NCBI GenBank assembly: GCA_964016885.1
Contig: OZ024740.1
Coordinates: forward strand, 4,526,001-4,590,000
Source of the DNA: Eledone cirrhosa
Lineage: Eukaryota
Direction of reading: 5' to 3'
DNA: 64,000 bases
Each line of letters begins with the position of its first letter. Position 1 is the first letter of the stretch. A program made the translations under genes and the position numbers. Below are positions 5,182-22,136 of this stretch, one piece after another. The notes under the pieces are model-generated. The model saw nothing but the letters and a program-made list of their open reading frames with translations, made no database searches and was not told where the DNA came from.

Positions 5182-5467
5182 ATACAGGTACACATACATA
5201 TATGCACGCATCAGTTTAGCCGACGTTTATTATAACGCCGGCCGCTTTGTTCGTTTGTCAACAAAGCGAACAGCCTGAATTTATGCCATACGGTGTTAAG
5301 GCAACCACGTCACCCTCCTGCTCAACACCGACACAGGTACGATGTACTAGTTCTAAGCTCCTCAGCCATCTTCAGCACCGTATACCCCTCTGCCAGATGG
5401 TTGAACATTCGAAAGTATACACTTTCCCTATGAAAATTAACGGCTGAGCAGCCCAATCAGGGTGTCC

Positions 5468-5546
<79 letters not shown>

Positions 5547-5660
5547 TGCTACTGTACGTCTGTATACATATATGTATGTACGTATACATACATACTTACA
5601 TTTAAGTAAGTGCCATACTAAGAGTGAGAAATGAAATTTCGTTTTCATTTTTTTTCAACT

Positions 5661-5757
<97 letters not shown>

Positions 5758-6035
5758 GGACACCCTGATTGGGCTGCTCAGCCGTTAATTTTCATAGGGA
5801 AAGTGTATACTTTCGAATGTTCAACCATCTGGCAGAGGGGTATACGGTGCTGAAGATGGCTGAGGAGCTTAGAACTAGTACATCGTACCTGTGTCGGTGT
5901 TGAGCAGGAGGGTGACGTGGTTGCCTTGGCGCCGTGCGGCATAAATCAGGCTGTCCGTTTGTTAACAAACGGACAGAGCGGGCGTTATAATAAACGTCCG
6001 CTAAACTGATACGTACATATATATATGTGTACCTG

Positions 6036-12458: not shown

Positions 12459-12995
12459 ATATACATATATATGGCATACGTCAAAACGGCCGGTCTCAAA
12501 AGTGAAACTAATTTTTGACAGTTACGTACACGTTATAAGAGTTATTTAAATTTATATATATAAAATAAAGGAGCAAATAAGAGCATGATATGAAGTCAGT
12601 CACGTGTGTGTATATATGTGTGTGTGTGTGTGTGTGTAAACGAATGTAAAAGAATATATGTAGGGCATAGATAATATGTAGGGCATAGATAATATGTAGG
12701 GCATAGATAAGGTTTCCTAGAATTTTACACACACACACATATATACACACACACGTTTATATATTATAGTGTGTATGTGTGCATATATAAGTGTATATGT
12801 GTGTGTACTTTTACATTCGTTTACACACACACACACATATATACACACACGTGACTGACTTCATATCATGCTCTTATTTGCTCCTTTATTTTATATATAT
12901 AAATTTAAATAACTCTTATAACGTGTACGTAACTGTCAACAATTAGTTTCACTTTTGAGACCGGCCGTTTTGACGTATGCCATATATATGTATAT
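12459..12995. repeat. Long inverted repeat / fold-back element (arms ~12459-12652 and ~12808-12995)
   Basis: Near-perfect reverse-complement arms. The spacer holds three copies of the 18-mer TAGGGCATAGATAATATG (third partial). Confidence 0.9.
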
Positions 12996-13432: not shown

Positions 13433-13626
13433 GGGCGTGGATTGGCAGTATCGGTAGAGGGTCGGACGCTCTGCTTTGACGTATAGAGTTACGGCCCTTG
13501 CCATTCTGGGTTCAAATCCCGCCGAGGTTAACTTTGTCTTTCATCCTTACAGGGTCGATAAAATAAAGTACCAGTAATGCTCTGGGTAATTGCTGGCCTT
13601 GTGCCAAACGTAAAAACAATTATAAT
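13433..13626 (+). mobile_element. tRNA-related SINE with Meta-like central domain
   Basis: A-box-like TGGCAGTATCGG, B box GGGTTCAAATCCC, central TTTCATCCTTACAGGGTCGATAAAATAAAGTACC (Meta/Sauria-like), AT-rich tail. Further copies at 16690-16982. Confidence 0.8.
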
Positions 13627-15818: not shown

Positions 15819-16689
15819 TACACATATATATAGAGAGAAACCAAATACAAATTTCTTAGAAATATTCCTAAGCCTAATTAAATTCTCTTCCTCTGCAACC
15901 CCCACCAGGATAATGGTACCTTACCATTTTTTGAAGAATCACAGAATATTGTTGTTAGGGAAATTTCTGTTGGAAGCAAGTTAATGGTGGGACCAACGGA
16001 ATGGAGAATGTTGACAAGTCTCCAATCTTCAAATAAATGTCACAGCATCCTTCACAATTATTCCAGTGTCACTCTGATATTATGGGAACACACAACTATG
16101 TTCTGCCAGTCGGTAGAGTGTTTGCCAATATATTCCCAGATTTGCTGCCAATATCAAAGTATTTGTTAGAACTTTTGATCAGCTTTGCTGGAGATATTAC
16201 ACTTATTTCTTCAACAAAACTAATAACAGAAATATTTACCATACACAAACATACATATATACACATACACACATATATACACAAACACACATATATACAC
16301 ACACATACATATATACACAAACATACATATATACACAAACATACATATATACACATACATACATATATACACATACACACATATATACACATACATACAT
16401 ATATACACACATACATATATACACAAACATACATATATACACTATTATGGGGACATGTACACATATACATATATACACATACATGGGGACCTGTACACAT
16501 ATATATATATACACATACATGGGGACATGTACACACATATATGGGGACATGTAAACATATATGTCTACATATACACACATATATACATACACATACATAT
16601 ATACACATACATACATATATACACACATACATATATACACATGATGGTTGCCCCCTCGTTATCGAGTATGGCCTTTGCACGATATACCA

Positions 16690-16884
16690 TTATTAATAAT
16701 TGTTTCTACCTTTGGCACAAGGCTAACAACCACCCAGCGCATTACCAGTACTCCACCTCACCGTCTCCGCAAGGATGAAAGGCAAAGTTAACCTCGGCGG
16801 GATTTGAACTCAGAATGGCAAGGGCCGTAACTCCATGCGTCAAAGCATGGCGTCCGACCCTCTACCGATACTGCCAATCTACCA
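16690..16884 (-). mobile_element. Full SINE copy (family of 13433-13626), hypermutated in its 3' half
   Basis: Reverse complement aligns by eye along the whole 13440-13625 copy. Confidence 0.85.
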
Positions 16885-16982
16885 TTGCCTTTCATCCCCA
16901 CGGGGTCGACAAAACAAAGCACCAGTAATGCACCGGGCAATTGCCGGCCCTGTGCCCAACGCAGAAACAATCATTAATAATT
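16885..16982 (+). mobile_element. 3' half of the same SINE, inverted relative to its neighbour, hypermutated
   Basis: Aligns to ~13534-13625 with about 11 T>C changes. Confidence 0.85.
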
Positions 16983-17907
16983 ATTAATTAATTCTATCGT
17001 GCAATGCCTGTGCGTGAAGATATTTTTTAAAGTGAGGAAAGACTGTGCACTGAGCCAATCCCACTCTCTGAGCGACAGTAGCTATAACACGAAAAGAAGA
17101 AAAGATCAACAGCATCGGTAACTACTGAGCCGCAGGTTTTATATCAGAGTTATCCCAGTCTCCTGAGTTACCTTCTCCTAGAAGAATGCCCTGACAAAGG
17201 CTAGGGGTCCTTCACTCCCAGTGGTTTAACCACACAATCGGGTGTCCAGCCCGATTATTTCTATGTCCCCGCGCATATACATACACATTCACCCATGCAT
17301 ATACACATATACATATACATACATATTTACATGTGTGTATACATATTTACACACTTTTGGACGGCCATTGACTCTTATGAGTTCTTCCGCCCTTTGTCAG
17401 GTTTTGTTTTTTGTCCTGCAGGGTGTCCAAAATCACCCTCCTCACCAAGTAAACTTGGTGGGGTTGCCGGTTTAGTCGCCGACGACCCGACCATGCGACA
17501 GGTTGTATATACACGTACATACATATATACACAGACATACGTATATACACATACATGGAGACATGTACATACATATATATATACATACATGGGGATATGT
17601 ACACATACATATATATATACACATACATGGGGACATACACACACATATATAAACATATATGGGGACATACACACAGGCATGCACACACACACACACATAC
17701 ATACATATGTACATACACACACATACACATGGAATGCATACACATGTATACACACATACATGTGGCCATGAACACACACACACATATGTGGACATGCAAA
17801 CACACACATACACACTGACATGGATATACACACTTAGACATACACACATCTTCACATACATTTCGACATGCACACATACACACAAGTAATGGATTTCAGT
17901 TGGTCTT

Positions 17908-20477: not shown

Positions 20478-22136
20478 AAAAAAACACCCAGTCCACACTG
20501 TAAACTGGTCATGTAGGTGTCATGACAAAAAGTACCCAGTCTACACTGTAAAGTGGTCATGTAGGTGTCACGTCAAAAATCCCCCAGCATACATTGTAAA
20601 GTGGTCATGTAGGTGTCACAACAAAAAGCACCCAGTCCACTCTGTAAAGTGGTCCTGTAGGTGTCATGATAAAAAGCACCCAGTCCACACTGTAAAGTGG
20701 TCATGTAGGTGTCACGACAAAAAGCACCCAGTCCACTCTGTAAAGTGGTCCTGTAGGTGTCATGTCAAAAATCACCCAGCATACATTGTAAAGTGGTCAT
20801 GTAGGTGTCACAACAAAAAGCACCCAGTCCACCCTTTAAAATGGTCATGTAGGTGTCACAACAAAAAGCACCCAGTCCACTCTGTAAAGTGGTCATGTAG
20901 GTGTCATGACAAAAAGCACCCAGTCCACTCTGTAAAGTGGTCATGTAGGTGTCATGACAAAAAGCACCCAGTCCACACTGTAAAGTGGTCCTGTAGGTGT
21001 CACGACAAAAAGCACCCAGTCCACTCTGTAAAGTGGTCATGTAGGTGTCATGACAAAAAGCACCCAGTCCACTCTGTAAAGTGGTCATGTAGGTGTCATG
21101 ACAAAAAGCACCCAGTCCACTCTGTAAAGTGGTCATGTAGGTGTCATGACAAAAAGCACCCAGTCCACATTGTAAAGTGGTCCTGTAGGTGTCACGACAA
21201 AAAGCACCCAGTCCACTCTGTAAAGTGGTCATGTAGGTGTCATGACAAAAAGCACCCAGTCCACCCTTTAAAATGGTCATGTAGGTGTCATAACAAAAAG
21301 CACCCAGTCCACTCTGTAAAGTGGTCCTGTAGGTGTCACGACAAAAAGCACCCAGTCCACTCTGTAAAGTGGTCCTGTAGGTGTCATGACAAAAAGCACC
21401 CAGTCCACTCTGTAAAGTGGTCCTGTAGGTGTCACGACAAAAAGCACCCAGTCCACTCTGTAAAGTGGTCCTGTAGGTGTCACGACAAAAAGCACCCAGT
21501 CCACTCTGTAAAGTGGTCCTGTAGGTGTCACGACAAAAAGCACCCAGTCCACTCTGTAAAGTGGTCCTGTAGGTGTCACGACAAAAAGCACCCAGTCCAC
21601 TCTGTAAAGTGGTCCTGTAGGTGTCACGACAAAAAGCACCCAGTCCACTCTGTAAAGTGGTCCTGTAGGTGTCACGACAAAAAGCACCCAGTCCACTCTG
21701 TAAAGTGGTCCTGTAGGTGTCACGACAAAAAGCACCCAGTCCACTCTGTAAAGTGGTCCTGTAGGTGTCACGACAAAAAGCACCCAGTCCACTCTGTAAA
21801 GTGGTCCTGTAGGTGTCACGACAAAAAGCACCCAGTCCACTCTGTAAAGTGGTCCTGTAGGTGTCACGACAAAAAGCACCCAGTCCACTCTGTAAAGTGG
21901 TCCTGTAGGTGTCACGACAAAAAGCACCCAGTCCACTCTGTAAAGTGGTCCTGTAGGTGTCACGACAAAAAGCACCCAGTCCACTCTGTAAAGTGGTCCT
22001 GTAGGTGTCACGACAAAAAGCACCCAGTCCACTCTGTAAAGTGGTCCTGTAGGTGTCACGACAAAAAGCACCCAGTCCACTCTGTAAAGTGGTCCTGTAG
22101 GTGTCACGACAAAAAGCACCCAGTCCACTCTGTAAA
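20478..22136 (+). repeat. 40-bp minisatellite, ~41 copies, derived from RTE 3' UTR
   Basis: Unit AAAAAGCACCCAGTCCACTCTGTAAAGTGGTCCTGTAGGTGTCACGAC is 48 nt as written. Confidence 0.5.

Follow-up and report, generated by a model that had tools for sequence, protein, structure and literature searches.

RNA edits can pass into DNA by reverse transcription, as in plant mitochondria and in kinetoplastids, where edited mRNA undergoes retroprocessing. In these cases, C-to-U edits or U insertions and deletions are involved, and organelle genes are replaced in place. Among retroelements, the closest precedents are avian retroviruses edited by ADAR and LTR elements edited by APOBEC. ADAR-linked A-to-G hyperediting has been described in RAV-1 (Felder, 1994) and avian leukosis virus (Hajjar and Linial, 1995; both as cited in PMC8586724). 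APOBEC 'DNA-edited' LTR retrotransposons have been found in vertebrate genomes; within the survey that describes them, they are reported absent from 19 invertebrates (PMC4866542). Editing in repeats is also known from cephalopods (PMC9068888). A-to-I edits are treated as not directly inherited (PMC7703385), and a 2016 review states that the role of ADAR editing in Alu subfamily evolution 'has not yet been determined' (PMC4982230). In the literature covered, which was largely open-access, no paper on ADAR footprints in germline non-LTR copies was found.

An inverted SINE pair in the genome of Eledone cirrhosa (3.0 Gb, large chromosomes) is probably such a case. It is located in the window, i.e. 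the whole stretch of 64,000 nucleotides that was analysed (GCA_964016885.1, contig OZ024740.1, positions 4,526,001 to 4,590,000, forward strand). The reading preferred here, which is drawn from sequence, is that a hairpin RNA was probably edited by ADAR and that individual edited molecules were then, repeatedly, copied into DNA by LINE machinery and inserted into the germline genome. Its probability is estimated at roughly 0.88. With the avian retroviruses, the locus shares clustered A>G changes ascribed to ADAR in a reverse-transcribed element (PMC8586724). Unlike these viruses, the element is non-LTR and non-autonomous, resides at several loci of an animal assembly and uses a SINE pair as duplex, and the edit sets differ from copy to copy. 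As in APOBEC-edited LTR elements, a strand-biased deaminase footprint is kept in genomic copies and becomes visible when edited copies are compared with a source. However, the APOBEC footprints are G>A changes from C-to-U deamination on the cDNA and concern LTR elements only, whereas A>G changes on the RNA strand, limited to a duplex, are seen here (PMC4866542). Substrate, clustering and depletion of G upstream of the edited A correspond to the hyper-editing of inverted SINE or Alu pairs in RNA (PMC4365171). While the latter is known in transcripts, the changes described here stand in the genome sequence. In contrast to retroprocessing, they are of the A-to-I type and affect dispersed nuclear retroposons.

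As the first-pass annotation had claimed, an inverted SINE pair is present at this locus. Both arms have been mapped, and the relevant parts of the window are the following:

16640..17507, minus strand: 5'-truncated copy of a non-autonomous RTE-type retroposon with the inverted SINE pair (empty copies of the element at L066-L094; 5' and 3' junctions inside a microsatellite)
16973..17275, minus strand: part common to an autonomous APE-RT LINE, where it lies immediately before the ORF (304 nt, 89-91% identity to L173, L174 and L176; in L174, the ORF follows directly)
16640..16682, minus strand: 3' terminus common to the same LINE, then TATG-type microsatellite (87-89% identity to the LINE 3' ends in L139, L173, L176 and L177)
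16885..16973, plus strand: first hairpin arm, formed by the 3' half of a SINE that is antisense in the retroposon RNA (11/25 A>G on the minus strand)
16697..16785, minus strand: 3' half of the full SINE, second hairpin arm (12/29 A>G)
16786..16884, minus strand: 99-nt loop closed by the long stem, formed by the 5' half of the full SINE and with practically no edits (1/20 A>G, at a polymorphic column)
16689..16700, again at 16970-16981, without strand: palindromic AT-rich 12-mer, SINE insertion site in the 3' hairpin loop of the host (seen in the sequence; empty site in other host copies; single SINEs inserted here independently in L036, L046, L153, L155 and L158)
13433..13626, plus strand: ordinary unedited SINE, inverted relative to the full SINE and 3 kb off, used as comparison copy

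The host element comprises ~600 nt, is abundant and mostly empty at the SINE site (1347 candidates, of which 40 were scored and 30 fetched). Over 304 nt, its 5' part matches an autonomous LINE at 89-91%, namely the stretch that directly precedes the ORF. The last ~54 nt of the host element match the 3' end of the same LINE (87-89%) and are followed by a TATG-type repeat. Common 5' part and 3' end characterize it as a non-autonomous LINE derivative. The C-terminal part of the LINE has homologues with an APE-RT-C2H2 layout in about 1100 aa; given this domain layout, the partner LINE is a putative member of the RTE clade. Host copies display variable 5' truncation and a fixed 3' end with a simple-repeat tail. 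Because of the orientation of the LINE ORF and the common 3' end, the sense strand of the host is the minus strand of the window, i.e. the strand that carries the changes.

The SINE itself, dispersed copies of which are flanked by target-site duplications, may be tRNA-derived, with the Nin/Deu type as candidate superfamily. ARAGORN called no tRNA, and a search against Rfam yielded no match at the gathering score and, below it, just microsatellite-driven miRNA matches. The AT palindrome in the 3' hairpin loop of the host is a recurrent SINE target in both orientations (window 16689-16700, L036, L045, L046, L070, L152-L155, L158 and L159), and single SINEs that entered it several times independently are unedited. 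Before editing, the hairpin RNA would have had a near-perfect 89-bp stem. A stem of ~100-120 bp with a loop of ~100 nt had been proposed; the stem is present and the loop has 99 nt, but the SINE-derived stem is shorter, reaching ~95-100 bp with the AT flanks. The edited sense strand of the window pair folds with -167 kcal/mol compared to -109 kcal/mol for the opposite strand, as expected with G-U wobble pairs.

Other repeats in the window include a 41-bp satellite array (23600-64000; about 980 copies, strong G skew), a 40-bp tandem array (20490-22130) and two near-perfect inverted repeats with short spacers (5279-5946, 265 nt, 98%; 12459-12995, 173 nt, 99%) that lack the mismatch load of the SINE pair.

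Compared to the copy at 13433-13626, T>C accounts for 13 of 27 differences in the left SINE and for 12 of 19 in the right piece. As reference, the majority sequence of 79 other SINE copies from 60 loci was used; these loci were chosen by likeness to the SINE and are, hence, biased toward clean ones. The window copy, read on the minus strand, deviates from this reference by A>G at 23/54 arm As and 1/20 loop As. Earlier counts of ~11 T>C per arm and ~1 in the loop are thereby confirmed (12/29, 11/25 and 1/20). The excess is restricted to the stem (arms vs loop, Fisher p=0.0018): In the adjoining host flanks, 0/23 As are changed, and in the whole host outside the hairpin, 3 A>G are found at 146 As. 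T>C amounts to 0/51 in the arms (p=1.5e-8 against A>G), so that all changes are on one genomic strand despite the opposite orientation of the SINEs, as originally noticed. At two of the changed positions, 16834 in the loop and 16738 in an arm, ordinary SINE copies are themselves variable. On the 5' side, the 23 arm changes have U in 11 cases, A in 7, C in 4 and G in 1. This agrees with the earlier count of mostly U or A and ~1 G among 22, but for this one copy, taken by itself, the scarcity of 5' G is not significant (p=0.22). Decay of CpGs created by the edits, a sign of age, was not significant (2/21 vs 5/228, p=0.11).

A genome search with the composite revealed four further full copies on C2, C6, C3 and C17 with 88-94% identity, non-SINE flanks included (40 scored of 5215 candidates). 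The five copies have one 3' end and five different 5' ends, as expected from separate target-primed insertions. Their junctions sit in TATG-type microsatellites, where target-site duplications cannot be read. A>G is found at 23/54 (window), 25/54, 18/54, 21/54 and 31/46 arm As, and T>C, in the same order, at 0/51, 0/51, 1/51, 0/51 and 0/49 positions. In the loop, each of the five copies has A>G at 1/20 As. The difference between arms and loop is significant in four copies with p=0.0018 to 1.8e-6 and in L033 with p=0.015. G>A occurs 0-5 times per copy compared to 19-35 A>G, i.e. APOBEC-type clusters of G>A on the sense strand are not encountered.

The edit sets of the five copies were analysed without three sites, two of them polymorphic and one possibly an ancestral G. 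Among 39 sites edited in at least one copy, 10 are edited in all scorable copies and 12 in one copy only; at 9/44 scored arm sites, all five copies have G. The best of 105 rooted trees over the 39 sites needs at least 53 gains or 9 losses, and 66/741 site pairs are incompatible. Consequently, repeated events are required at the variable sites. Fixed-margin shuffles of 37 gap-free sites uncovered no tree signal beyond site and copy rates (P=0.38 and 0.14), which fits separate edited molecules that arose from a single template in which some sites are hot spots. The five copies may nonetheless have inherited a core of about nine sites or may have been re-edited serially. An early five-copy tree, which was based on three G/A variants, was dropped: two of the three sites could be edits, and the tree fitted the edits poorly (72 gains).

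Alternatively, a single edited ancestor might have been integrated once, and its five descendants might differ by later mutation, by conversion or by a few further rounds of editing. The 10 of 39 sites common to all scorable copies would agree with this history, as would the fact that four copies are near-subsets of L035; furthermore, another host family in the genome has largely shared edit patterns (see below). However, 76/193 cells would have had to revert, while G>A is observed at only 11/304 native non-CpG G cells. Site and copy rates by themselves are enough to produce the nesting. The would-be reversions are scattered among retained edits, whereas conversion would leave tracts. Serial descent with re-editing is possible, yet it needs ADAR more than once. 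Descent from one edited integration is, therefore, regarded as very unlikely.

The anatomy, the strand, the restriction to the stem, the five loci with different 5' ends and the lack of tree signal are observed. On this basis, the following course of events is proposed for separate edited molecules. In a single master copy, two SINE pieces would have inserted head to head into the palindromic AT site, and the transcript of this copy could fold into the 89-bp stem. ADAR would then have converted roughly one third to two thirds of the stem As to inosine, with a preference for 5' U and A. During target-primed integration, the reverse transcriptase of the partner LINE would have read inosine as G, and the master may later have been lost or broken. 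The proposal of the first-pass annotation that a hyper-edited minus-strand hairpin RNA was reverse-transcribed and integrated is supported by these data, with an RTE-type retroposon as vehicle and its sense strand as the edited strand.

The unedited source locus with the same inverted structure, for which a search had been recommended, was not found. Genome searches with composite, junction and arm-start patterns did not reveal an intact unedited master. The junction pattern is present at 4 loci, all of them edited; the fifth copy has a 19-nt deletion there. Of 13 matches to the arm-start pattern, five are the known copies and seven are loci in which the SINE is single and antisense; the last is L150. 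L150 (G000:C3:356511075-356511675) is a 3'-truncated stub: It has a full-head host with the alleles of the family, is unedited and breaks off ~20 nt into the first arm. It carries many private changes. Judged by its sequence, L150 is possibly a remnant of the master or a sibling of it.

Inverted SINE pairs were further surveyed in 128 non-redundant loci, which contain 82 pairs with a distance of less than 1 kb. In 7/82 pairs both arms are edited, and all of these belong to the five copies or to L095, a locus found by the edited-SINE pattern. Among 64 inverted pairs in 22 loci that had not been chosen by edit pattern, no pair (0/64) has more than four same-strand changes per arm. One of these clean pairs, L070, resides in the same host site. 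Similarly, a sharing of the variants by solitary SINE subfamilies, which would have spoken against the reading, is not seen: 173/174 SINE pieces in loci not chosen by edit pattern have at most five same-strand A>G or T>C changes, and the lone exception is an edited piece. This means, inversion alone does not make the pattern; passage through RNA appears to do so.

An edited copy and its unedited source, independent of the five copies, could be compared directly. L095/L179 (G000:C1:356649628-356650248) differs from its source on C12, L180 (G000:C12:19803306-19803932), by 71 A>G among 83 substitutions over 617 nt with 198 As. T>C was found three times, and among As with a 5' G, 3/25 are edited (p=0.007). 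The edits extend into complementary microsatellites, and the copy starts within the first SINE. L095/L179 is followed by a related RTE-type element that is absent from the source stretch L180; L095/L179 may be a chimeric retro-insertion.

This pair also bears on the idea that RNA-based polishing or read errors placed transcript edits in the assembly. The C alleles of the window copy are those of the assembly sequence: Over 16630-17270, the matches from contigs of four of 24 sequence runs (X1, X4, X5 and X7) were dominated by repeats, and no piece among the matches listed spans the hairpin. However, polishing with RNA would leave edits in the transcribed locus, which here would be the source on C12; instead, this source is unedited and the truncated copy on C1 is edited. 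In addition, edits are found in dispersed copies while the 64 ordinary inverted pairs are clean, and younger unedited SINEs directly adjoin edited ones in L033, L108 and L117. An assembly artefact is, thus, highly improbable.

Published ADAR motifs comprise a depletion of G upstream and an enrichment of G 3' of the edited A (PMC4365171). In the five copies, pooled by 5' base, 55/79 cells with a 5' U are edited, 40/96 with A, 16/54 with C and 1/23 with G, whereby the cells are not independent. The preference for 3' G is weak or absent here, with a mean edited fraction of 0.52 with 3' G and 0.36-0.54 with other bases. In 12 edited pieces from other loci, which are partly related, the edited fractions by 5' base are 60/123 (U), 72/142 (A), 25/103 (C) and 7/66 (G), and 40/86 As with 3' G are edited compared to 124/348 others. 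An ADAR-family deaminase domain (PF02137) is encoded above cut-off at four genome loci; ADAR, ADAD and ADAT1 are alike possible. Thus, A>G on one strand, restriction to the duplex, depletion of 5' G, identity of the edited strand with the inferred sense strand of the host and a PF02137 domain all agree with a product of ADAR.

A process other than ADAR could be misincorporation by reverse transcriptase at the hairpin under skewed dNTP pools, or an adenine deaminase or GC-biased repair that acts on a DNA cruciform. Since the changes are tied to retroposed copies, a reverse transcription step is involved anyway. However, both arms are affected, loop and flanks are spared, and the 5' order U, A > C > G recurs in the 12 partly related pieces from other loci (5' G at 7/66). 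A DNA-level or GC-biased process would add T>C on the same strand, which is seen at 0-1 of about 50 positions per copy. Such mechanisms have, therefore, very little probability. SINE subfamily variation and CpG decay, both already discounted by the first-pass annotation, are rejected, as the two arms are oppositely oriented, the 79 other copies lack the pattern and CpG decay runs in the wrong direction; templated repair at the locus, which had been offered as an alternative, is unneeded and unsupported.

Edited SINE pieces are not confined to inverted pairs. An autonomous LINE family with an RT ORF, which we take to be Dong/R4-like, has antisense SINE pieces in its 5' region; their A>G sets, located on the sense strand, are common to the copies, and a partner arm in cis is missing (L108, L111-L113, L115-L117, L123, L129, L131, L162, L167, L169 and L170). 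Such pieces were detected in 11/30 loci fetched from 171 pattern matches and in four further loci. Many of the 30 loci are ordinary SINEs with 2-3 changes, so that 171 is not a count of edited copies. As the edit patterns of this family are largely shared, an edited copy seems to have kept multiplying. Several copies are followed by the same LINE in antisense, tail to tail.

The second such family is the autonomous RTE-type LINE that is the partner of the host element: Five of its copies (L041, L166, L168, L171 and L172) carry an antisense SINE piece near the 5' end with 10-16 sense-strand A>G each and partly different patterns. A 5' inversion is present in L175. Within 15 stretches of the first and 6 of the RTE-type family, each of 9.9 kb, no sense SINE partner was found inside the element. 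The partner strand of the duplex may have lain upstream at the source locus or may have been free SINE RNA. Furthermore, a lone sense SINE fragment with 15 A>G among 18 changes is located at L097:1428-1543 between inverted arrays of a 43-nt repeat. RTE and Dong-type LINEs have been described in octopus genomes (PMC13282606).

The five copies resemble snapshots of individual edited RNA molecules that were preserved in the germline. All sequences concerned are non-coding repeats, and an effect on host genes or fitness is not implied. The sets of A>G changes can serve as a strand marker that reveals which RNA was copied, and the method developed for APOBEC footprints is adaptable to A>G for genome-wide counts. 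Tentatively, and at slightly less than even odds, ADAR might routinely edit germline retrotransposition intermediates in this octopus-type genome, which would make RNA editing a recurrent source of heritable mutation; edited elements would stay mobile and found subfamilies, and some of these, which lack a partner arm in cis, would have been edited in a duplex with free SINE RNA. With the copies, a path by which RNA editing leads to changes in DNA becomes open to testing, and they record ADAR activity in the cells in which LINEs jump.
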